DNA of 64,000 nucleotides from Candidatus Bathyarchaeota archaeon (GTDB taxonomy: Archaea > Thermoproteota > Bathyarchaeia > Bathyarchaeales > Bathycorpusculaceae): NCBI GenBank assembly GCA_963775465.1, contig CAVZIW010000002.1, forward strand, positions 1 to 64,000, read 5' to 3'. Both the position numbers and the translations under genes were made by a program. This document shows, in pieces, positions 48,817 through 59,905 of this stretch. The notes under the pieces are model-generated. The model was given only the letters and a program-made list of their open reading frames with translations. It was not told the origin of the DNA and searched no databases. How positions within the stretch are numbered: the first letter of the stretch is position 1; every line of letters starts with the position of its first letter.

Positions 48817-50319
48817 TTGTCTAACCAAGCAAAGACTCGGACAGTAGAGGAAATTAATGCGAAAATTCGCAAGGGCGACGCTCAAATTTTAACCGTTGAG
48901 GAAATGAAGAAACTCGTGGACAGCAGTGGAGTAGAGGTTGCTTTTCGAGAAGTAGATGTAGTTACTACAGGTACATTTGGCGCTATGTGTAGTTCAGGCG
49001 CTGTGGTTAACGTAGGTCACTCTGATCCGCCGATAAAGATTGACAATGCTTGGATGAACAACGTGCCTGTATGCCACCCTGGTGCTGCAGTGGACTTATT
49101 CATTGGTGCCACAAACATGTCTGAGAAAATACCCTTCGAATATGGTGGTGGACATGTAATAGAAGATTTAGTCGCTGGAAACGAAATAGAACTCCGAGCA
49201 ACATCTTATGGGACTGATTGTTACCCTCGAACTTCTATTAAAACAACCTTGACAAAGGATGATTTGAACCAGTTTTATCTGATTAACTTCCGCAATGGAT
49301 ACCAACGTTACAACTGCGCGGTCAATGGAAGTGAGGAAATCATCTACACCTATATGAGTAAACTTTTGCCAAGGTTGCGAAACGCCACGTACTCTGGTGC
49401 GGGAGAACTCAACCCTTTGATGAATGACCCTGACTACGAAACCATGGGTATGGGTACTCGCATTTTCCTTGGAGGCGCTCAAGGTTACATTATTGGCGAA
49501 GGCACTCAGCATAGCCCTAAAAACCTAAGTGGAACTTTGATGGTCAAGGGAGATGCGAAAAAGATGTCGCCCGAGTTCTTGCAGGGTGCTGCCTTCACTG
49601 GGTATGGAACATCTTTGTATGTAGGTTTAGGTGTCCCGATTCCAATTTTAAACGAGGGATTGGCACGCAAGACTGCCATCCGTGACAGCGAAATTATGAC
49701 GGATATTGTTGATTACAGCGTACCCCGACGTGACCGCCCTAAGCTTGGTCAAGTCAGCTATGCAGAACTCAAATCAGGGTCCATTAACATTAATGGAAAG
49801 AAAATCCGCGTAAGCTCGCTTTCAAGTTTGAAAATGGCAAAGAAGGTTTCCCAAACGCTCAAAGAATGGATCGATGAAGGAAGCTTCTTTTTGACTTCAC
49901 CTGTGGAGCGTTTGCCAACGAACAGTACGTTTAAACCTATGCGTCAGACCGAGGAAATTCCTTTCGTGGTTAGCGTTATGCATCCAGCCATTACATGCAC
50001 TGAAAACGAAGAAATCCAAGTCATAGCCAAACTCATTGTTACAAATTCAGTTAACCACATAGTTGTTGTCGATGATGCAGGCAAACTTTTGGGTATCGTT
50101 ACTTCTTGGGACGTAACTAGAGCTATGGCGGAGGGCAAGAAAGCATTGGCTGACATAGAGACTCGCAGCGTTGTAACAGCCAAACCTGAAGAACCCCTTG
50201 AGATAGCCTCTAAACGCATGGCGCAGCACAACATCTCAGCTTTGCCTGTAATAAACATAGAAAGGAAGGTTCTTGGTATCGTTACAACTGAAGATGTGGC
50301 TAAATTGTTAGGAAGGTAA
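48817..50319 (+). CDS. L-aspartate-semialdehyde sulfurtransferase (homocysteine synthesis, DUF39 + CBS; MA1821/MJ0100-like)
   Basis: VDVVTTGTFGAMCSSG, YGGGHVIE, C-terminal CBS pair. Confidence 0.9.
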   Translation: MSNQAKTRTVEEINAKIRKGDAQILTVEEMKKLVDSSGVEVAFREVDVVTTGTFGAMCSSGAVVNVGHSDPPIKIDNAWMNNVPVCHPGAAVDLFIGATNMSEKIPFEYGGGHVIEDLVAGNEIELRATSYGTDCYPRTSIKTTLTKDDLNQFYLINFRNGYQRYNCAVNGSEEIIYTYMSKLLPRLRNATYSGAGELNPLMNDPDYETMGMGTRIFLGGAQGYIIGEGTQHSPKNLSGTLMVKGDAKKMSPEFLQGAAFTGYGTSLYVGLGVPIPILNEGLARKTAIRDSEIMTDIVDYSVPRRDRPKLGQVSYAELKSGSININGKKIRVSSLSSLKMAKKVSQTLKEWIDEGSFFLTSPVERLPTNSTFKPMRQTEEIPFVVSVMHPAITCTENEEIQVIAKLIVTNSVNHIVVVDDAGKLLGIVTSWDVTRAMAEGKKALADIETRSVVTAKPEEPLEIASKRMAQHNISALPVINIERKVLGIVTTEDVAKLLGR

Positions 50320-50323
50320 ACAT

Positions 50324-50752
50324 ATGGGAAGAATACTGATACGCTTTAACGAGGAACAAGTCTCAGAGCCGATTGCTTCACAAATTATAATTGAGCACAA
50401 AGTGCCGATGGCAATCTTAACAGCACACATTAACTCGAAGGGCGGGGAAATTCTTGCTGAAGTTCCCGATGACCAACTTCAAAAAGTCGTCGATGCATTC
50501 CGTAAACGGGGCGTTGCTATTATGGTGCCTAAACTCATCGAAGTAGATTCAGAAAAATGCTTCAGTTGCGGCAGTTGCGTAGCACTTTGCCCTGTTGAAG
50601 CAATTACCTTAGCACCGGATTCGACTGTACAGTTTGATAAAGTAAGATGTATGGGTAGCGCTTGCGGAATCTGCGTGGATGCTTGCCCTGCTCGAGCTAT
50701 TAAATCTGTCAAGCAAAACGGTGTCGACCTAATCAGGTTAAAGAAAAGTTGA
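50324..50752 (+). CDS. NIL domain + 2x[4Fe-4S] ferredoxin (MA1822-like partner)
   Basis: NIL domain, CFSCGSCVALCP, CGICVDACP. Confidence 0.85.
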   Translation: MGRILIRFNEEQVSEPIASQIIIEHKVPMAILTAHINSKGGEILAEVPDDQLQKVVDAFRKRGVAIMVPKLIEVDSEKCFSCGSCVALCPVEAITLAPDSTVQFDKVRCMGSACGICVDACPARAIKSVKQNGVDLIRLKKS

Positions 50753-51453
50753 CTGGCAACCTTCTGAGAGAAAATTTTCTTTTCAAAGAATCTCAATGCA
50801 CGATAATTTCTGATCAGGAAAAAGCCATTAGAATAGCTGTTGCCTCAATAAAGCAAAATTATCGAGAACTTGAACTCTACACGAGGGCAAACCCCAAATT
50901 TGTCCACGCTCTATCCCCTCTTCCTATACCTGATGAACCAGTAGTGGCCAAGCTGATGGCAGAGTTTGCCCAAAAGGCAGGTGTCGGTCCCATGGCTGCC
51001 GTAGCCGGAGCCATAGCAGATTTGGCTGTCAAAGACATGTTAAATGGAGGGTGCAAGGTAGCGGTGGTTGAGGATGGAGGCGAAATATCAGCCAACTCAA
51101 ACCAACCAATCGATATAGCAGTTGCTGCTGGTGAAGAGCCACTATCGAAACGTTTTGGATTTAGATTAACAGAGTTTCCGATAGGCGTTGCCACTAGCTC
51201 AGGACGCTTTAGTCACGCTATCAGTTTTGGGGATGCAGAGGCAGTGACGGTTTTTTGTAATAATGCAACTTTGGCAGATTCTGCAGCGACAGCAATCGGT
51301 AACACTGTGAAAGGCGAAGATGCCCACGTAGGAATTCAAGCAGGAATCGACAAAGCATTGTCAATTGAAGGTGTCCAAGGAGTATTCATCCTTTACAAAG
51401 GACAAGTTGGAACAGCTGGGAAAATTCCCCAAATAATAAAAATTCACGCTTAA
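50749..51453 (+). CDS. UPF0280 / ApbE-like protein
   Basis: VGPMAAVAG, DGGEI, TSSG, SFGDA. Confidence 0.88.
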   Translation: MTGNLLRENFLFKESQCTIISDQEKAIRIAVASIKQNYRELELYTRANPKFVHALSPLPIPDEPVVAKLMAEFAQKAGVGPMAAVAGAIADLAVKDMLNGGCKVAVVEDGGEISANSNQPIDIAVAAGEEPLSKRFGFRLTEFPIGVATSSGRFSHAISFGDAEAVTVFCNNATLADSAATAIGNTVKGEDAHVGIQAGIDKALSIEGVQGVFILYKGQVGTAGKIPQIIKIHA

Positions 51454-51590
51454 GTTAGCTTTTCCTAATTTAGCCTCTTAAGCAAGGCAAGTAACTTGGC
51501 TAAGGCAACAACAAACGAAATTCCCATGAAACAAGAGTATTCTTGATTCCCACGAGCTCTGGAGCAGCGCCTTAAAGTTTACTTCAAATC

Positions 51591-51605
51591 CGAAACGCTT
51601 ATATT
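51591..51605 (+). promoter_or_regulatory. BRE/TATA promoter of leader plus aro operon
   Basis: CGAAACG-CTTATATT about 35 nt upstream of the leader ATG. Confidence 0.55.
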
Positions 51606-51639
51606 TTCAGGGACCTGACTGATTTGCAGGTTCGAAGCA

Positions 51640-51729
51640 ATGTCCAATCTAAGAAACACAGCGGTAAAAGCGGCTTCCCTGTTACACAGCTTCGAATACG
51701 GTTTTTATTATTTCGGTTATTTTACTTAA
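51640..51729 (+). CDS. Putative Phe/Tyr-rich leader peptide of the aromatic amino-acid operon (29 aa)
   Basis: MSNLRNTAVKAASLLHSFEYGFYYFGYFT*: 4 Phe + 4 Tyr in 11 consecutive codons; ends 59 nt before first aro-operon gene. Confidence 0.75.
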   Translation: MSNLRNTAVKAASLLHSFEYGFYYFGYFT

Positions 51730-51767
51730 GCCCAGAACTAAAAAATTTTTTAATAAAAGTTCTGGGC
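51730..51767 (+). promoter_or_regulatory. Attenuator-like hairpin after leader stop
   Basis: GCCCAGAACT / AGTTCTGGGC perfect 10-bp stem, loop with A6-T6. Confidence 0.7.
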
Positions 51768-51788
51768 AAAGCAAGGATGTAAAAACAA

Positions 51789-53033
51789 ATGGCAAAACTT
51801 TCCTCTAACCCAACTATAGTCGTTAAATTTGGCGGTTCTAGCCTATCTGACCACGAAAGACTCTTAAAAGCAGTTAGGGCAGTTGTAAACGAAACAAAAA
51901 AAGGCGTCAAAATTGCGGTAGTAGTTTCCGCCATGGGCAAAACCACCGATGTCCTAATGAAAACTGCCAAAAATACTTCAAACGGCAAACTAGCTAAGCA
52001 CGAGTTAGACGATATTCTTTCTATGGGGGAACGTACTAGTGTTCGCATCTTCGCCACCGCCCTTCGAAACAACGGTATTGACGCCTGCTATTTTGACCCC
52101 ATGGACAGCAAATGGCCTATCGTAACTGATGACTCATTTCAAAACGCTAATCCCATCGTCAAAGAATGTGAGAAGAACATCAAAGAATGCATACTTCCCC
52201 TTGTGAAGGCAGGTACTGTTCCGGTTATCGCTGGGTTTGTGGGTAAAACTAAAGATGGAAAAATCACAACACTTGGCAGAGGCGGCAGTGATACTTCCGC
52301 ATTCATTTTGGCTCAAGGTCTGGACGCCAATCAAATTGTCTTGGTCACAAACGCAGCTGGAATAATGTCAGGTGACCCCAAAATAATTGCTGCTCCTCAA
52401 CTTCTTCCAACAATTAACGTTACTACTCTTGTAGGATTGGCAGATTCAGGAGCCAAATTCATTCACAGTAAAGCTCTGAAGTATAAACCTAAAGATATAG
52501 ACATCAAAGTCATAAGTAATGCGCACGGCGATTTGAGTCATTCTGGGACAATCATTACGGGTGGATTAGCAACAGAACTTGACGCTGAAATTGCTCACCC
52601 AACCCAAGTTGTAGAAATTACTGTTATCGGCAATGGCTTGTCGGCAAACCCTGAAATAATCAATGCCTTGGTGGAAAAAGTTAGAGCTCACTCTATGCTA
52701 CTTGGAATGTCCATGAACACCAACTCAATCATCCTTTATGTTCCTCAAGAAAGGAGCATTGATACTCTCTTTAATCAAATTCACAAAATAACAATTGGTA
52801 ATAAGGAAACGATAGCAATGGCGGTCAAAAAGGATCTAGTGTTTATAAAAACCAGCGGAGTTGGTTTGGAGGAGACGCATGGAATAATAGGAAAAATCAG
52901 CGAGGATTTGCGTGTTAGCGGCATAAATATTTCTGGTATACTTACAATTACTTCTAGCATTCTTTTATTTGTGGATTGGAATGAAAAAGAGAAAGCATTA
53001 AAGTTAATTAAAAGCTCTCTCAAACAAAGTTAA
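51789..53033 (+). CDS. Second aspartate kinase (heads aro operon)
   Basis: KFGGSS, VVSAMG, GER, GRGGSDTS, ACT-like C-terminus. Confidence 0.9.
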   Translation: MAKLSSNPTIVVKFGGSSLSDHERLLKAVRAVVNETKKGVKIAVVVSAMGKTTDVLMKTAKNTSNGKLAKHELDDILSMGERTSVRIFATALRNNGIDACYFDPMDSKWPIVTDDSFQNANPIVKECEKNIKECILPLVKAGTVPVIAGFVGKTKDGKITTLGRGGSDTSAFILAQGLDANQIVLVTNAAGIMSGDPKIIAAPQLLPTINVTTLVGLADSGAKFIHSKALKYKPKDIDIKVISNAHGDLSHSGTIITGGLATELDAEIAHPTQVVEITVIGNGLSANPEIINALVEKVRAHSMLLGMSMNTNSIILYVPQERSIDTLFNQIHKITIGNKETIAMAVKKDLVFIKTSGVGLEETHGIIGKISEDLRVSGINISGILTITSSILLFVDWNEKEKALKLIKSSLKQS

Positions 53034-53034
53034 G

Positions 53035-53835
53035 GTGGAAAGTATGAACGAAGGTAAAACCCGCAGACTAAAAAGAATCATGCAAAAAGATAACCGTACA
53101 GTTATCGTGCCCATGGATCATGGTGTAACCATTGGACCAATTCAAGGCTTAACCGACATGCAAACCATAACTAACCAGCTAGTAAAAGGTGGAGTTGACG
53201 CTATACTTGTCCACAAAGGCATAGCTAAACGCGTTGACACAGCAAACGCAGGTTTAATCGTCATGCTTTCAGGGATGTCCAACCGTAGTCCGAACGTAAA
53301 CGGAAAAGTCCAAGTTTGTAGCGTGAAGGAAGCCATACACATCGGCGCAGATGCAGTAAGCGTTCATGTGAACATTGGAGCACAAGACGAAAATAAAATG
53401 CTTAAAAACTTAGGCAAAGTTTCTGAAGAATGCGACGAATTCGGTTTACCATTGTTAGCCATGATGTATCCGCGGGGTCCAAAAATCCAAAATGAACATG
53501 AACCAGAGGCAGTAGCGCATGCTGCAAGAATCGGTGCTGAACTTGGTGCAGACATCATCAAAACTAACTACACAGGTGACATAGAAACCTTCAAGGCAGT
53601 TGTTGAAAGCTGTCCTTCTCCAGTTGTAATAGCTGGAGGACCAAAATGTAAGTCTCCTGAAGAGATCCTTCAGACCACATGCGACGCAATAAAAGCTGGA
53701 GCTGCTGGTCTCTCGATAGGCAGAAACGTGTTTCAGTGTGAAAGCCCAACACAAATTTCCAAAGCCCTATGTGCTATAGTTCACCAAAACGCGAGCGTTG
53801 AGCAGACGCTAAAATTTCTCGGTGATAAGCGTTGA
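53035..53835 (+). CDS. aroA': 2-amino-3,7-dideoxy-D-threo-hept-6-ulosonate (ADH) synthase
   Basis: PMDHG, MMYPRG, GADIIKT, class I aldolase; adjacent to DHQ synthase II. Confidence 0.9.
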   Translation: MESMNEGKTRRLKRIMQKDNRTVIVPMDHGVTIGPIQGLTDMQTITNQLVKGGVDAILVHKGIAKRVDTANAGLIVMLSGMSNRSPNVNGKVQVCSVKEAIHIGADAVSVHVNIGAQDENKMLKNLGKVSEECDEFGLPLLAMMYPRGPKIQNEHEPEAVAHAARIGAELGADIIKTNYTGDIETFKAVVESCPSPVVIAGGPKCKSPEEILQTTCDAIKAGAAGLSIGRNVFQCESPTQISKALCAIVHQNASVEQTLKFLGDKR

Positions 53836-54852
53836 AGGAACTCTGGGTAGAAATCACACAAGATCAAAAAGGAGGAATGCAGTCTCTAATTACTCAATAC
53901 TGCGATGCAGTCGTCGAAGGGGACCAAGCTACTTTTTTAGCAAACAAAGAAAGCCTCCGAGTAATCTCTCTCTCAGCTAATAATTTGGAAAAAATCAAAT
54001 CAGGCAGTGAAATTGTAAGAATTTGCATTGAGGATAAAGCAACAGAAGACCTGATCGTGAAAGCTGCAGACTTAGGTGCGAGATACTTAATCATCAGTTG
54101 TGCTAATTGGCGTGTAATTCCTCTTGAAAATCTTATCGCAAGAATAAAAAGTAAGAGCAAATTAATAGCCGAAGTAACCAACGCCGAAGAAGCAAAAGTG
54201 GCAGTGGATACTCTTGAATTGGGAACTAACGGCGTTTTGCTTAGAACTTCAGATCCCGAAGAACTAAAAAAAACCATTGCTGTAGTTAAGCCCGATGCCT
54301 TGAATCTTGATATGGCTGAGGCCAAAATTATTACAACTAAACCCATCAGTAATGGAGCACGAGTTTGTGTGGATACCTGCGATATGATGAGCGCAGGTGA
54401 AGGGATGCTTGTCGGTAGCCAAAGTGCGGGTTTGTTTTTGGTAGAAGCGGAGGTTCATGAAAATCCATACGTAGCTTCCCGACCCTTCAGGGTGAATGCA
54501 GGTTCGTTATCTATGTACACATTGGGCAATTTGGAAACTACACGTTACCTTCAAGAGTTCAAAGCTGGAGATGAAGTTGTAGTAGTTAATCGTGAAGGCA
54601 AAACCCGAAAAACCAACGTTGGTAGAATAAAGATAGAAATTAGACCGCTTATCCTTGTTGAAGCCCAAGTGAACGGCAAAATCATAAAAACTATCCTGCA
54701 AAATGCCGAAACAATCCGAGTTGTTACACCCAAAGACTCTAAACCCGTGACAGACCTAAAACCGGGTGATGAAGTCGTCGTGCATCTCAGCCGCGAAGGG
54801 AGGAAGACACTTCGGCATATCAGTGCCTAAAGAAACGGTGATTGAGAAGTGA
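53832..54852 (+). CDS. aroB': 3-dehydroquinate synthase II, +1 frameshift near 54790
   Basis: WRVIPLEN, RVCVDT, RPFRVNAG, LQNAETI; shifted GGRHFG...ETVIEK* overlaps aroD GTG. Confidence 0.92.
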
Positions 54853-55532
54853 GTGTGAGAATCTGTGTTTCGATTCTCCCAAAAGAAATGACAGAAGCCC
54901 TAAATCTAATTGAAAAGGCAGAGAAGGCTCATTCTGACTTTATCGAAATTCGACTCGACTGCTTTGAAGAATCGCGAAACCTCAAAGATCTCAAAGAAAG
55001 CACAAGAATTCCCTTGATTGCCACAAATAAACTTGTAAACGAAAAAGGCTTTTTTGCAGGAACAGAGGCTGAACGTCAGCAAACCCTTCTAAATGCCGCC
55101 GTTAACGGTTTTGAATACATTGATGTTGATTCTTCAAGCTCAAAATGTGCTGAAACCATACGTCAACTCAGAGAATTTGGAGCAAAACCAATTGTTTCAT
55201 ACCACAATTATAATGGCGTTATAGATACTTTCAAAATGGAAAAGATTCTTAACGAACATATCGCTCAAGGCGCGGCAGTTTGCAAAATCGTTACTACCGC
55301 AAAACAGTTTGACGATAATTTACCTGTTTTAAGTTTTGTTTCTTTTGCTTCAGCTAAGTCTAAGCTGGTTTGTTTCTGCATGGGTGAAAAAGGAAAAATC
55401 TCTAGACTTCTTTCGCCCATGTTTGGTGCTTACTTTACATTTGCTTCGCTGGAAGGTGATTCAACCGCTCCGGGGCAAATGAGTATTGCCGAAATGCGTA
55501 AAGCCTACGCTTTATTGGGAGTTAAGCAATGA
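54849..55532 (+). CDS. aroD: 3-dehydroquinate dehydratase type I
   Basis: EIRLD, SYH, CKIV, MG..G..SR, TAPGQ. Confidence 0.93.
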   Translation: MSVRICVSILPKEMTEALNLIEKAEKAHSDFIEIRLDCFEESRNLKDLKESTRIPLIATNKLVNEKGFFAGTEAERQQTLLNAAVNGFEYIDVDSSSSKCAETIRQLREFGAKPIVSYHNYNGVIDTFKMEKILNEHIAQGAAVCKIVTTAKQFDDNLPVLSFVSFASAKSKLVCFCMGEKGKISRLLSPMFGAYFTFASLEGDSTAPGQMSIAEMRKAYALLGVKQ

Positions 55533-56386
55533 ATATTTCGGGAAAAACACGCATCTGCGGAGTCATAGGTGACCCCATAGAACACAGCTTAAGCCCTCTA
55601 ATTCACAATGCTGCATTTCAGGAACTTAAGATAAATTATGTATATTTAGCTTTCAAAGTCAAGCCAGCTGAAGTTGCCAACGCAGTGAACGGTATGCGCG
55701 CCTTAAACATTCGCGGTTTGAACGTTACAATGCCCCATAAGAGCGCTGTAGTAAAACATTTAGATAGAGTTGATTTGTCAGCGCAAATCGTAAACTCTGT
55801 TAACACAATCTTGAATAAAGAAAATCTTCTTTTCGGGTTTAACACTGATGGTTTGGGTGCCCTTAGAGCTTTAAAAGAAAACGGAGTTGAACTTAAAGGT
55901 AGAAAAGTTCTTTTGTTAGGGGCTGGAGGCGCTTCACGAGCTATTGCTTACGCATTGGCAAAAGAAGCTGATGAAATTGCCGTTTTGAATCGCACAGTTA
56001 AACCTGCCCAAGCCTTGGCTAAAGTTTTGGAGAGAGCACTTACCAAAAAAGTCACCGTGGGTACTCTTTCACATAGCGATATAGCTCTTAATCTTAGAGA
56101 TTCAGATATTCTTGTTAACGCAACATCCATGGGTATGAAACCTCACTTCGACGATAGTCCCGTGCCTTCTAAATTGTTAAGACCTGATTTGGCAGTTATG
56201 GATATTGTTTACAATCCACTTGAAACAAAGCTTGTAAAAGAAGCAAAGATTGCTGGAGCTAAAGTAATTAATGGTGTGGAAATGCTCATTTATCAAGGGG
56301 CCGCATCACTTGAGCTTTGGACAGGTAAATCTGCTCCTGTTGAAGCAATGCGACAAGCATCGTTAAAACACTTAATGAAGGTATAA
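55529..56386 (+). CDS. aroE: Shikimate dehydrogenase
   Basis: HSLSP, NVTMPHK, NTDG, GAGGA, DIVYNP. Confidence 0.96.
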   Translation: MNISGKTRICGVIGDPIEHSLSPLIHNAAFQELKINYVYLAFKVKPAEVANAVNGMRALNIRGLNVTMPHKSAVVKHLDRVDLSAQIVNSVNTILNKENLLFGFNTDGLGALRALKENGVELKGRKVLLLGAGGASRAIAYALAKEADEIAVLNRTVKPAQALAKVLERALTKKVTVGTLSHSDIALNLRDSDILVNATSMGMKPHFDDSPVPSKLLRPDLAVMDIVYNPLETKLVKEAKIAGAKVINGVEMLIYQGAASLELWTGKSAPVEAMRQASLKHLMKV

Positions 56387-56389
56387 CCT

Positions 56390-57262
56390 GTGTCGGGAAA
56401 AGCTACGGCGTTAGTTCATGGGGCTGCAACAATCGTCAATGCGATTGCGTTAGGAAAGGGTGCAGCGTTTGGGGTTGATTTGTGGACTAAGGCAGAAGTC
56501 AAACTAACTGATGAGCCAGGTGTTATTTTGGCAGAGATTGTGTCTGACCATAAAGAAAGCACGCTTTTGATCGAAAAAACGGCTGTAAGGGTTTTGCAGC
56601 ATTTTAGTTTGGAGAAGAGTTTTGGTGTAAAAGTAAAAACTCAATCGAATATCCCCATTGCACGTGGACTAAAGAGTAGTAGTGCAGCTGCAAATGCAAC
56701 AGCTCTTGCCGTCGTTGCGGCTTTGGAAAAACTTCGAGATGACTTAGAAATTGTTAAAATCGGTGTGGAAGCGGCTTTTGCCGCAAAAGTCACCGTAACA
56801 GGAGCGTTTGATGATGCCTGTGCTTCATACTTTGGTGGGGTTGTAATAACGGATAACTTGAACAAAAAAATAATCAAGCAGATGCAGCTGACGGAAGATT
56901 TTTCTGTACTTTTCCATGTGCCCCCCCAGAAAGTTTACACTGCTGACTCAAACTTGAATCGACTTCAAACTGTCAAACCGCTTGTGGAAATGGCGTTCAA
57001 GTCCGCTTTGGAAGGTAAAGTTTGGGAAGCCCTAACTCTTAATGGATTAGTTTACTCCTCAGCCTCCAATCTAAACCCAGCAATCGCTATAGACGCTTTA
57101 GCAGCTGGAGCTGTGGCGGCTGGTCTTTGTGGCAAAGGACCTGCTGTTACCTCTGTGGTTTCAAAGGATAAAGTTGATTCGGTAAAAGCTGCCTTGAAAA
57201 ACTATGAAGGCGAAATCTTGCAGACAAAATTGAACCGTGAAAAAGCAAAGGTGATAACATAA
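56390..57262 (+). CDS. aroK: Archaeal GHMP shikimate kinase
   Basis: TIVNAIA.GKG, GLKSSSA, TGAFDDA, G.GPA. Confidence 0.93.
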   Translation: MSGKATALVHGAATIVNAIALGKGAAFGVDLWTKAEVKLTDEPGVILAEIVSDHKESTLLIEKTAVRVLQHFSLEKSFGVKVKTQSNIPIARGLKSSSAAANATALAVVAALEKLRDDLEIVKIGVEAAFAAKVTVTGAFDDACASYFGGVVITDNLNKKIIKQMQLTEDFSVLFHVPPQKVYTADSNLNRLQTVKPLVEMAFKSALEGKVWEALTLNGLVYSSASNLNPAIAIDALAAGAVAAGLCGKGPAVTSVVSKDKVDSVKAALKNYEGEILQTKLNREKAKVIT

Positions 57263-58560
57263 CGGCAACAGTCACGATCAGAAAAGCTCGAAGACTCAAT
57301 GGACAAATTTGCGCACCTTCCTCTAAATCATACACACAAAGAATGACTATAGCTGCTGCGCTTTGCTATGGGGTTTCTAAGGTTTCTGATCCCTTATTGT
57401 CCGAGGACACCGAAGCCACACTCCGAGCCATAACCGCTTTAGGTGCAAAAGTGAAAACCTCAGAGGGTTGTTGGACTATAGAGGGTGCAAAGACTCTTAA
57501 AGGCTCAAATGAGCCAATTGACTGTGGAGAATCAGGCACAACGCTTCGTTTCATGATTCCAATAGCTGCGTTAGCCAATGGCTCTTCGACTTTGGTTTTT
57601 AGAGGTTCTCTCGATAAACGCCCAGTGGAACCCTTGCTTACAAGCCTCAAAGAACTCGGAGCAAAAGCGGATGCTGGAAATCTGGATGCCAAAGACGCTG
57701 TTTTTGTGGAGGGTGGCGGAATTGTTGGTGGGGAAACTTACATTGCTGGGGATGTGAGTTCTCAGTTTATTTCTGGTTTGATGTTTGCGTGCCCACGAGC
57801 TGAAGTGGACACAGAAATAATGTTGACTTCACCTTTAGAGTCTGCAGACTATGTCAAGATGACAGAGGCTGTTCTATCTAATCACGGAATCAAAGTGCCA
57901 GCACACGAAAAACACATACATATCCCCGCAAAACAAACCTACCTGCCTTCCGATGGTATAGTTCCGGGCGATTTCTCTTCAGCTGCTTTCCTTCTTGCCG
58001 CTGCAGCCATAACAGAATCTAGAATTCAAGTAAATAACCTCAACTACGGCAGAATCCAGGGAGATCAAGCAATTATTGGGGTCCTAAAGCAAATGGGTGT
58101 TGAGGGGAAAGTGTGTGAGGAAAGCGTTGAGATTGAAGGCTCAGGCTATCTGCTTAAACCTGTAGAAGTTGATGCTAAGAATATTCCTGACCTTGTACCT
58201 GTTATTGCTGTCTTGGCATGTTATGCGCAAGGGCTTACTCACATTTTTGGAGCTCATAGACTTCGTTTAAAAGAGTCTAACCGCCTTGAGTCGCTATACC
58301 TTGAGTTAACAAAAATGGGTGCACAAATCACCCTCAACGATGATGGTTTACTTATACAGGGTGGCTCACTTCTGCATGGTGCAACAATAGACCCACATAA
58401 TGACCACCGAATTGCAATGGCTTGTGCAGTTGCTGCTTTACGTGCAGAAGGAGAAACAACGATTCAAAATGCTGACTGTGTCAGAAAGTCTTATCCACAA
58501 TTCTTCACTCATCTAAAGCAAATAGGAGTAGATTTAGTTGGCAGGAAATTCGATAGGTAA
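57259..58560 (+). CDS. aroA: EPSP synthase
   Basis: APSSKSYTQR upstream of tracked ATG, GESGTTLRF, SSQF, KESNR, DHRIAM; apparent ATA start. Confidence 0.95.
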   Translation: MTATVTIRKARRLNGQICAPSSKSYTQRMTIAAALCYGVSKVSDPLLSEDTEATLRAITALGAKVKTSEGCWTIEGAKTLKGSNEPIDCGESGTTLRFMIPIAALANGSSTLVFRGSLDKRPVEPLLTSLKELGAKADAGNLDAKDAVFVEGGGIVGGETYIAGDVSSQFISGLMFACPRAEVDTEIMLTSPLESADYVKMTEAVLSNHGIKVPAHEKHIHIPAKQTYLPSDGIVPGDFSSAAFLLAAAAITESRIQVNNLNYGRIQGDQAIIGVLKQMGVEGKVCEESVEIEGSGYLLKPVEVDAKNIPDLVPVIAVLACYAQGLTHIFGAHRLRLKESNRLESLYLELTKMGAQITLNDDGLLIQGGSLLHGATIDPHNDHRIAMACAVAALRAEGETTIQNADCVRKSYPQFFTHLKQIGVDLVGRKFDR

Positions 58561-59641
58561 AGAATTTGTTGTTACCACGTTTGGCGAAAGCCACGGAAGC
58601 GTTATCGGCGTTATTGTGGACGGTTGCCCCGCAGGATTACCGCTAGTCGAAGCTGATTTTCAAGAGGAGCTCGATCGTAGGATTCCGGCTGAAACAAAAA
58701 TTGTTTCTGCACGTATCGAGAAAGATATTGCCAAAATATTCAGCGGTGTTTTCAATGGTCTCACAACTGGTGCCCCCATCACTTTGATGGTTGAGAATAA
58801 AGACGTGAAATCTGGTGATTACGAAGAAATCAAGGATTTGCCAAGACCTGGTCAAGCGGATTACCCTGCACGAATTAAATACGGCGGCTTTAACGATTAC
58901 AGAGGAGGCGGGCGTTTCTCTGGACGCATCACTGTTGCGTTAATCATGGCTGGCACAATAGCCAAGAAGCTACTCGGTCGATACAATATCGATGTTTTGG
59001 CCTACACACTGGCGATTGGTGACATTAAATCTGAAAAACATTTTAGTTCCGCAGAGATCAGGAAAAACCGGGATGCTGCTGCTACGAGGTGCCCCGATTT
59101 AATTTGTGCTGATAAGATGGAGCAAGCTATCGTGGAAGCTAAAAAAGAAGGTGACAGCTTGGGTGGTATAGTCGAATGTGTCGCAGTTAACATGCCTGTG
59201 GGAATTGGCGAGCCGTTGTTTGATACACTAGACGGTGACTTGGCTAAAGTGTTGTTCGCCGTTCCAGCCGTGAAAGGCGTTGAATTCGGTATCGGTTTTG
59301 CGTCGGCTAATCTTCGGGGTTCAGAAAACAATGATGCTTACAAATCAAGTAATGGTAAGGTTACAACTTTGACTGAGAATGCTGGTGGCATCTTGGGCGG
59401 TTTATCCAGTGGCATGCCAATACTGATAAGGGTAGCGATAAAACCTACTCCTTCTATCGCCAAGGAGCAGAAGACTGTTAACGTTTGTACTTTGGAGAAT
59501 GCTGCCTTAAGTGTTAAGGGAAGACATGACCCTTGTATAGTTCCAAAAGCTGTACCTGCTATCGAAGCAGCAGTTGCTATAACTTTAGCTGATCATATGA
59601 TTCGCTCAGGCTATATGCCGCAAGTTATAAAGGAGCACTAA
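58538..59641 (+). CDS. aroC: Chorismate synthase
   Basis: FGESHG, RPGQAD, GGRFSGR, GRHDPC. Confidence 0.96.
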   Translation: MAGNSIGKEFVVTTFGESHGSVIGVIVDGCPAGLPLVEADFQEELDRRIPAETKIVSARIEKDIAKIFSGVFNGLTTGAPITLMVENKDVKSGDYEEIKDLPRPGQADYPARIKYGGFNDYRGGGRFSGRITVALIMAGTIAKKLLGRYNIDVLAYTLAIGDIKSEKHFSSAEIRKNRDAAATRCPDLICADKMEQAIVEAKKEGDSLGGIVECVAVNMPVGIGEPLFDTLDGDLAKVLFAVPAVKGVEFGIGFASANLRGSENNDAYKSSNGKVTTLTENAGGILGGLSSGMPILIRVAIKPTPSIAKEQKTVNVCTLENAALSVKGRHDPCIVPKAVPAIEAAVAITLADHMIRSGYMPQVIKEH

Positions 59642-59644
59642 ACC

Positions 59645-59905
59645 TTGGATGATCTCCACGTGTTTCGCCGAAGAATAGATGAAATAGACGACCAAATCTT
59701 AAACGCTCTATGTGAAAGAGCCAAGATATGCAAAGCCATCGGTGCAGCCAAGAAAAAGAAGGGAAAACCCGTTCGCGATCTCTCAAGAGAAAATCAGTTA
59801 TTCAAACGAATAGCTGCAAAGGGAATTGAATTCGGTCTTGATGCAAGTCAACTTAAAGCGGTATACCGCGAAATAGTTAATATGTGCAGTTCAGTTCAAG
59901 AATAA
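59645..59905 (+). CDS. Chorismate mutase (AroQ)
   Basis: R..IDEID..I..L.ER....IG..K...VRD..RE. Confidence 0.9.
   Translation: MDDLHVFRRRIDEIDDQILNALCERAKICKAIGAAKKKKGKPVRDLSRENQLFKRIAAKGIEFGLDASQLKAVYREIVNMCSSVQE

Follow-up and report, generated by a model that had tools for sequence, protein, structure and literature searches.

Upstream of the aromatic amino acid operon of an uncultured member of the Bathyarchaeia lies a short open reading frame (ORF) whose last codons are crowded with phenylalanine and tyrosine. It is found in a 64,000-nucleotide (nt) stretch of Candidatus Bathyarchaeota archaeon DNA (GenBank assembly GCA_963775465.1, contig CAVZIW010000002.1, positions 1 to 64,000 of the forward strand), referred to below as the window. 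The feature is real and conserved, and it is most likely a Phe/Tyr-sensing leader ORF with an archaeal type of wiring. Its sequence indicates that the ORF probably acts as a gauge by which the ribosome senses charged tRNA-Phe and charged tRNA-Tyr, and that it would in this way set the expression of the operon, which begins with an aspartate kinase gene.

The leader ORF occupies positions 51640-51729 of the + strand, opens with an ATG and comprises 29 codons and a stop; it can be followed in the window sequence and in the ORF list, is kept in place in relatives, and has MSNLRNTAVKAASLLHSFEYGFYYFGYFT as its translation. Codons 18, 22, 25 and 28 specify Phe and codons 20, 23, 24 and 27 specify Tyr, that is, eight of the last 11 codons before the stop (codons 18-28, 4 Phe and 4 Tyr, positions 51691-51723, + strand). 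Codons 1-17 contain no aromatic residue, and Trp is absent from the whole leader. The stop codon ends at 51729, and 59 nt separate it from the aspartate kinase ATG at 51789. The ORF, its Phe/Tyr cluster and its distance from the operon had been described in the initial annotation and are borne out by the sequence, the ORF list and the translation; the BRE/TATA-like promoter that it had placed ahead of the ORF and the aspartate kinase-to-tyrA operon that it had placed behind it stood up equally well (see below). Within the organism's own genome (40% G+C), 6 of 25,693 ATG ORFs of 10-70 codons hold at least eight Phe or Tyr codons within 11 codons, and 25 hold at least seven; at least six are found in 10 of the 2,069 intergenic small ORFs that have a gene no more than 300 nt downstream. 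A single leader ORF of this kind is therefore rare in its own genome, is not unique, and is unconvincing by itself. It is considered more than a chance occurrence because it is conserved in place across relatives.

Loci upstream of the orthologous kinase gene were collected in four sets, drawn respectively from the genus and order, from named records, from a class-wide sample and from other classes of the phylum. Within the genus (set 1), an ATG ORF with an aromatic tail is present in 24/24 loci, the window included; these ORFs have 24-29 codons, share the tail S-F-D/E-Y-x-F-Y-Y..., and end 46-65 nt 5' of the kinase gene. It is also present in 3/3 loci from two other families of the order, where the kinases are 49-59% identical, and in 0/3 loci preceding a paralogous kinase (35-37% identity). 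Among records labelled Bathyarchaeia with a kinase identity of at least 47% (set 2), 21/22 carry the ORF, several of them duplicating genomes of set 1; L049 is the one that does not. An aromatic-tailed upstream ORF was also found in a Brockarchaeota record (L055, tail AFFWTYY) and in a record labelled Micrarchaeota (L056), and none was found in a Hadarchaeota record, a Nitrososphaerales record or the remaining records of set 2. The class-wide Bathyarchaeia loci of set 3 were reached through dehydroquinate (DHQ) synthase II, and the kinase was taken as orthologous at 43% identity or more, with upstream DNA present; the ORF occurs in 15/22 such loci, and a further locus, L140, has an in-frame aromatic run but no ATG. 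Where the set 3 kinase is only 37-40% identical, the count is 0/7. In the other classes of the phylum (set 4), 12/16 loci carry the ORF: 3/3 in family f56, 2/2 in f60, the single f64 locus (with an ORF of 8 codons) and 6/6 in f45, two of these being strong and four having 4-5 aromatic residues. In all five set 4 representatives checked, the genes that come after the kinase are those for ADH synthase, DHQ synthase II and aroD. The leader thus recurs in about a dozen GTDB families, with nucleotide sequences that are unrelated.

Two other conserved elements were seen upstream of related kinase genes. At four loci of family f26 (L153, L155, L156, L160), a different element, around ...TTTTCGGTGATGGCGTTTAC..., lies ~100-165 nt 5' of the kinase gene and reads M-G-x-x-x-F-G-D-G-V-Y; it stands in the place of an aromatic-rich leader. 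The motif GTTTTCAGGGGGCCTCGTTTTTA is common to L136, L138 and L143, ~100-130 nt upstream of a more distant kinase (38-40% identical) that also precedes ADH synthase, with no aromatic-rich ORF at these loci.

What is conserved in the ORF is best seen in the 53 distinct tails. Their last 12 codons hold on average 7.5 aromatic codons in frame vs 1.3 and 1.6 in the two other frames, and vs 2.8 expected from base composition. Both synonymous codons are in use (TTT 96, TTC 80, TAT 148, TAC 64, with TGG 8), and the tails differ widely from one lineage to another, as in YYYYYYYCFF, FFDFFYYYFYFE, FFGSFGYFGY, FGYFYFYYFGP and YFEFYFSGYWYMFNY. The N-terminal part of the leader is free in sequence and length, while the ATG and the open frame are found in every copy. 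Trp codons appear in the tails of some lineages, which fits since the operon makes chorismate for all three aromatic amino acids. A conserved peptide sequence with fixed critical residues was not found across lineages, only aromatic content. At depth, then, it is aromatic content and frame that the alignments point to as conserved, and the pattern looks like the signature of a codon-run leader rather than that of a conserved peptide. The initial annotation had called for a comparison of orthologous aro operons and for a look at synonymous variation, and both came out in its favor: the short upstream ORF with its cluster of Phe and Tyr (sometimes Trp) codons is kept in related and distant genomes. 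A translated, Phe/Tyr-sensing leader is supported by this retention of the cluster, by the use of both codons of each pair, by the variable N-terminus and by an enrichment confined to one frame.

The leader is preceded by a BRE/TATA-like (B recognition element/TATA) promoter element, CCGAAACGCTTATATTTT, at 51590-51607 (+), which is nearly invariant in the aligned leaders of the genus and is also found in other families. From the usual spacing of ~26 nt behind such an element, transcription would start near 51628-51630, leaving an untranslated 5' part of ~11 nt. The 5' arm of a helix that we call P1, GTTCGAAGC (51630-51638, +), lies directly 5' of the leader ATG and would probably stand at the very 5' end of the mRNA. 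In the minimum free energy (MFE) fold it pairs with 51689-51697 (+), GCTTCGAAT, which spans codons Ser17-Phe18-Glu19 at the beginning of the aromatic tract. The core of P1 is predicted by RNAalifold from 40 main-clade leaders, in which 91.6% of its cells are paired, and P1 is also present in the MFE fold of the window leader, the whole of which has a z of -2.2. At the seven core pairs, changes keep pairing, two unpaired cells excepted (A-U to G-U 8 times, U-A to U-G 5 times), and the synonymous sites of AGC-TTC-GA in the 3' arm are almost invariant in the 40 leaders.

A second hairpin, P2, was identified by folding and alignment at 51730-51767 (+), with arms 51730-51739 and 51758-51767; it begins at the first base after the leader stop. 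Its loop of 18 nt contains A6 followed by T6, the latter at 51746-51751. P2 was likewise predicted by RNAalifold, and 97.5% of its cells are paired in the 40 main-clade leaders. Hairpins of unrelated sequence follow the stop in distant lineages, and those of 13/16 representatives are more stable than shuffles (Fisher 2e-13). Behind P2, at 51773-51779 (+), the alignment reveals AAGGATG, which presumably serves the kinase gene as its Shine-Dalgarno (SD) element; the counterpart in relatives is GGGTG, GGAGG or GGGGG. The element lies 2-13 nt behind the post-stop hairpin. The geometry is well kept in the 59 loci that were tabulated. The hairpin starts 0-5 nt past the stop, the aromatic codons begin 8-14 codons ahead of the stop and end 1-3 codons ahead of it, and the distance from the hairpin end to the estimated kinase start is 16-32 nt in 49 loci; in the remaining ten it is 0-7 or 43-55 nt, the kinase start there being only estimated. 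The tract, where ribosomes would stall, thus runs from the 3' arm of P1 to 1-3 codons before the stop, adjoining P2. The sequence GGTTCGAAGC, the P1 motif, has five copies in the organism's own genome, four of them outside leaders, and the P2 motif has a single one; the idea that P1 and P2 are sites of a regulon was rejected on these counts.

Some details of individual leaders may be recorded here. In the window, a start codon is directly followed by a stop at 51777-51782 (ATG TAA; most of the genus has GTG TAA); the pair overlaps the SD-like element and lies 1-7 nt 5' of the kinase ATG. In L161-L165 (families f56 and f60), the last two sense codons, GGTCCC, can form a small hairpin with GGGGACC after the stop, the TAA stop being in the loop; GGGGACC doubles as the 5' arm of the large post-stop hairpin, which makes the two folds mutually exclusive. 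In L118 and L179 (family f14), the arms of the post-stop hairpin read GCTTCGA.../...TCGAAGC, the same word as that of P1 in the clade of the window, and T5 and an SD follow; L118 has seven consecutive Tyr codons.

This arrangement suggests how such a gauge might work. On an mRNA beginning ~11 nt 5' of the ATG, a ribosome would pass through the variable N-terminal part and reach eight Phe or Tyr codons among the last 11. The tract would occupy the space between the 3' arm of P1 and the 5' arm of P2, P1 linking the first aromatic codons back to the region where the leader itself starts and P2 spanning from the base after the stop to a few nt 5' of the kinase SD. If Phe or Tyr were short, ribosomes would linger in the tract and the folding of P1 and P2 would differ from that reached when they run to the stop; because the tract fills the space between the two helices, a lingering ribosome would have to alter the folding of one or both. 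A ribosome reaching the stop would sit on the 5' arm of P2 and then leave. As to the output, a translational gate at the kinase start, akin to translational attenuation in ermC or in the mycobacterial poly-Cys leaders, is our tentative proposal, to which we would not give quite an even chance. P1 and P2 in their folded form would then be the off state, and ribosomes held in the tract would keep P2 open, along with any pairing between the tract and the initiation region, making room for a 30S subunit at the kinase start. A steric version may apply as well: with a stable hairpin only 2-13 nt ahead of the SD, standby room would be lacking except when the hairpin is kept open by a ribosome.

Several observations weigh against the sensor or against its proposed output. 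Related genomes are not independent, and the locus counts overstate the support accordingly. Five loci of family f26 and one f35 locus in set 3, and the f50 (0/3) and f69 (0/1) loci of set 4, have no aromatic ORF. Pairing of the start region with the tract is weak beyond the main clade (3/16 representatives at p<0.05, Fisher 0.015), and double changes occur in only 3 of the 17 pairs of P1 and P2 together, the high sequence conservation limiting covariation. The MFE fold of the window pairs tract positions 51701-51718 with the kinase initiation region, 51770-51786; in 27 representatives, however, this pairing is not above composition-matched shuffles (Fisher p 0.67), and it ranks at the 33rd percentile when set against the initiation regions of 2,464 other genes. 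U-rich codons and a purine-rich initiation region pair in this way by composition. The modelled accessibility of the kinase initiation region (means over 45 loci) is 0.43 for the free RNA, 0.42 with a ribosome stalled at the first aromatic codon, 0.52 mid-tract and 0.50 at the stop, so that in the model the position of the ribosome appears to change it little and inconsistently. Sequestration of the SD by the tract thus drew no consistent support from the accessibility model and none from the duplex comparison with all initiation regions or the tract-shuffle control. Nor was a sister element found in the genome: scans for enrichment in single amino acids yielded no convincing second amino-acid leader, a scan for small ORFs followed by hairpins yielded no further convincing one, and no Trp-rich leader lies upstream of the trp operon (contig C8, ~88 kb). 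Finally, metatranscriptome contigs, from small shares of three runs of one study, comprise five pieces lying between 51809 and 53249, in parts of the kinase and ADH synthase genes, with the leader outside their coverage.

The sensor could instead act on transcription, P2 hiding or exposing an oligo-U run that it carries or that follows it; this main alternative we consider rather unlikely. A ribosome at the stop would hold the 5' arm of P2 and leave the U-run and the 3' arm single-stranded, leading to termination, either intrinsic, at the oligo-dT, or via FttA, while a ribosome stalled upstream would let P2 fold and the polymerase read on. A T-run of at least four lies inside P2 in 44/59 loci, recurring where the hairpins are unrelated in sequence (L154, L158, L053, L137), and in the main clade it faces an A-run, with which P2 would pair it away. 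In 7/59 loci, all of other lineages than that of the window, T4-6 stands directly behind the hairpin, and the succession of hairpin, T4-6 and SD, seen in six lineages, resembles a terminator. According to one source (PMC13681488), archaeal transcription terminates at tracts of oligo-dT, and FttA has a preference for U-rich nascent RNA and depends on an uncoupling from translation; a masking of oligo-U would agree with this. Against this, the T-run is absent or short in 12/59 loci (e.g. L023, L024, L039, L044), T-runs are common in AT-rich spacers, and an intrinsic signal would be transcribed before the 3' arm exists, so that masking could act on a factor only. A scan for bacterial-type consensus terminators found no terminator-like site in 51300-52000, the T6 of the window being inside the P2 loop and not behind the hairpin, and antiterminator pairing of upstream leader segments with P2 was not detected (1/21 representatives at p<0.05 vs shuffles, Fisher 0.18). 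The classical four-segment attenuator is not supported, since no alternative helices beyond shuffles and, in the window, no hairpin-plus-U terminator were found. Thus, of the dual Phe/Tyr-sensing attenuator put forward in the initial annotation, the translated sensing leader is upheld by the ORFs of the orthologs, and attenuation of the bacterial type is not, no terminator/antiterminator alternative having been found.

Three further explanations were weighed. The nascent peptide itself might be the sensor, as in TnaC or the fungal arginine attenuator peptide, its aromatic tail and free Phe or Tyr in the tunnel arresting the ribosome near the stop. The conserved S-F-D/E-Y-x-F-Y-Y motif of the main clade and the many peptides that end with Pro before the stop would agree with this, as would the stop codon itself, which is located at the base of P2, or in a small loop in f56 and f60, where an arrested terminating ribosome would control folding. 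Yet no order of residues is kept across lineages, only aromatic content; the conserved S-F-D/E codons double as the 3' arm of P1, with invariant synonymous sites; and the last residue is variable (T, P, N, Y, F, E, G, K), which makes this mechanism quite improbable. A very improbable one is frameshifting at hungry codons, whereby starved ribosomes would slip in the U-rich tract, read through the stop and P2, and end beside the kinase start, switching the kinase on. In the window, neither of the other frames meets a stop between the tract and the end of P2: the +1 frame runs on to 20 nt inside the kinase gene, and the -1 frame to TAA 51780-51782. About ten members of the genus likewise have the end of the -1 frame at this conserved TAA, 1-7 nt 5' of the kinase ATG. 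Among 29 lineage representatives, however, the +1 frame reaches the kinase start in 18 vs 13.0 expected from shuffled spacers, and either frame does so in 19 vs 15.6, neither count being above chance, and many lineages have early stops in both frames. Lastly, the ORF might be incidental or encode a working small peptide, the conserved object being a DNA or non-coding RNA element, for instance a U-rich or triplet repeat bound by a protein, or an operator formed by the TTCGA inverted repeat. The arms of P1 and P2 are conserved beyond the needs of a helix, and those of P1, an inverted repeat, lie close to where transcription is predicted to start, a location at which archaeal repressors bind. This explanation is nevertheless scarcely credible: the ATG, the open frame and the stop position are kept in lineages whose nucleotide sequences are unrelated, the bias towards aromatic codons is confined to one frame, the first two thirds of the peptide show no conservation, the changes in P1 are those that pairing of the + strand RNA tolerates (G for A opposite U, U for C opposite G), and the single P2 motif in the genome does not suit a regulon operator. 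Rfam offers no match either, the best hit of an Rfam 15 scan of 51000-52200 having E 6.4 and 10.8 bits, and all hits being far below gathering scores.

The operon that the leader would control extends from the aspartate kinase gene to the prephenate dehydrogenase gene, 51789-61881 (+), with coordinates from the ORF list. Its first gene encodes a 414-residue amino-acid kinase with an ACT domain. By Pfam, the order is AA_kinase plus ACT, a DeoC-type aldolase (ADH synthase), DHQ synthase II, DHquinase I (aroD), shikimate dehydrogenase (aroE), a GHMP-type (shikimate) kinase, EPSP synthase, chorismate synthase, CM_2 (chorismate mutase), a class I/II aminotransferase and prephenate dehydrogenase, followed by GATase. 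The archaeal route to dehydroquinate, the ADH synthase pathway, draws on aspartate semialdehyde. Because of this requirement for aspartate semialdehyde, an aspartate kinase makes sense as the first gene of the operon. The prephenate dehydratase gene pheA was considered as a further gene under the leader and was rejected; it lies outside the aro operon, at contig C2 63960-64781 (-), as the last gene of an operon resembling leuA/leuB/leuD/leuC (contig C2 63960-69108, -) that is oriented towards the aro operon just past the window end. On the 5' side of the leader, 48817-51453 (+) contains a homocysteine-biosynthesis gene (HcyBio and CBS), a NIL-ferredoxin gene and a 234-residue ORF with no Pfam match. 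Elsewhere in the genome, the trpE (chorismate-binding) match on contig C8, 88276-89707 (+), is split across two overlapping frames, 88312-88899 and 88817-89074; a frameshift or a faulty assembly at the trpE-trpG junction might account for this. On contig C6, a 32-codon ORF at 254452-254550 (-) has two Trp among its final residues, ...LWGEKRQWE; behind it comes a hairpin (-15.8 kcal/mol), 4 nt ahead of a 357-residue gene.

On a wider scale, we judge it somewhat better than an even bet that leader peptides serve as amino-acid gauges throughout at least one archaeal phylum, with a wiring unlike that in bacteria, a single hairpin abutting the stop, a helix with which the start locks itself taking the place of terminator and antiterminator, and the output going either to initiation at the first gene or to oligo-U- or FttA-dependent termination. 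If this is true, the conserved, phylum-wide leader would show that archaea, too, use the ribosome as a metabolite gauge. The initial annotation knew of no demonstration of leader-peptide control in archaea, and the literature searched, which did not extend to subscription journals and supplements, contains no counterexample and no description of an amino-acid-sensing leader peptide in archaea; an earlier report is possible. A Haloferax ribosome-profiling paper, in its accessible part, reports upstream small ORFs and does not characterise them, and one introductory sentence of the uORF4u paper, citing reviews, says that upstream ORFs act in archaea too. The interplay of archaeal ribosomes, RNA folding, oligo-U termination and FttA is named as open in a 2025 commentary (PMC13681488), and the leader, ~160 nt long, offers a short and defined test object for it. 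Such leader ORFs also matter for annotation: gene callers miss them, and in uncultured Bathyarchaeia they would indicate where the aromatic pathway has its regulated start.

Attenuation by leader peptides is the textbook case of coupled transcription and translation in regulation, and is taught as a bacterial device; the enterobacterial transcription attenuators include pheL-pheA, pheM-pheST, trpL and hisL. As in pheL, trpL and hisL, a short ORF at the head of a biosynthetic operon, carrying clustered codons for its end products and followed by an RNA structure, would let the ribosome gauge charged tRNA, and the leader stands between a promoter, here a conserved BRE/TATA element with a predicted transcript start, and the first gene of the cognate operon. 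Unlike them, it belongs to an archaeal host, no mutually exclusive 1:2, 2:3 and 3:4 helices were found in it, the window has no hairpin-plus-U-tract terminator, the regulatory codons extend up to the stop with a hairpin from the next base, and the first gene is an aspartate kinase, feeding the archaeal aspartate-semialdehyde route to dehydroquinate. Since alternative helices and an intrinsic terminator, two of the defining features, were not found, we do not assign the leader to the classical attenuator family.

Bacteria also have leaders with other outputs: translational attenuation in ermCL and cat, and Rho-dependent leaders in mgtL and tnaC. In these, as would be the case here, the position of the ribosome in the leader ORF determines downstream RNA folding and hence either whether the next start is accessible or whether a termination factor is loaded. 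They differ in sensing a drug, the supply of proline or free Trp, partly by means of specific nascent peptides, whereas only aromatic codon content is conserved in the present leader; the archaeal counterpart of Rho in mgtL and tnaC would be FttA. Of the designs studied by experiment, the nearest is the leaderless poly-Cys ORF of mycobacteria (Canestrari et al., bioRxiv 10.1101/834739). That preprint describes leaderless short ORFs with a translational output, proposed to operate through structure near the next ribosome-binding site, and also names ermC and cat. According to the same text, the mycobacterial Cys codons pair directly with the SD region, as shown by compensatory mutants, whereas in our case the pairing of tract and initiation region predicted in the window does no better than composition-matched controls, and a separate hairpin lies between tract and SD. 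Both have a short ORF that is almost leaderless, carries its cognate codons in a run towards the 3' end and stands ahead of the matching biosynthetic operon. On this evidence (bioRxiv 10.1101/834739), the mycobacterial poly-Cys leaders show that a design of such a kind works in bacteria.

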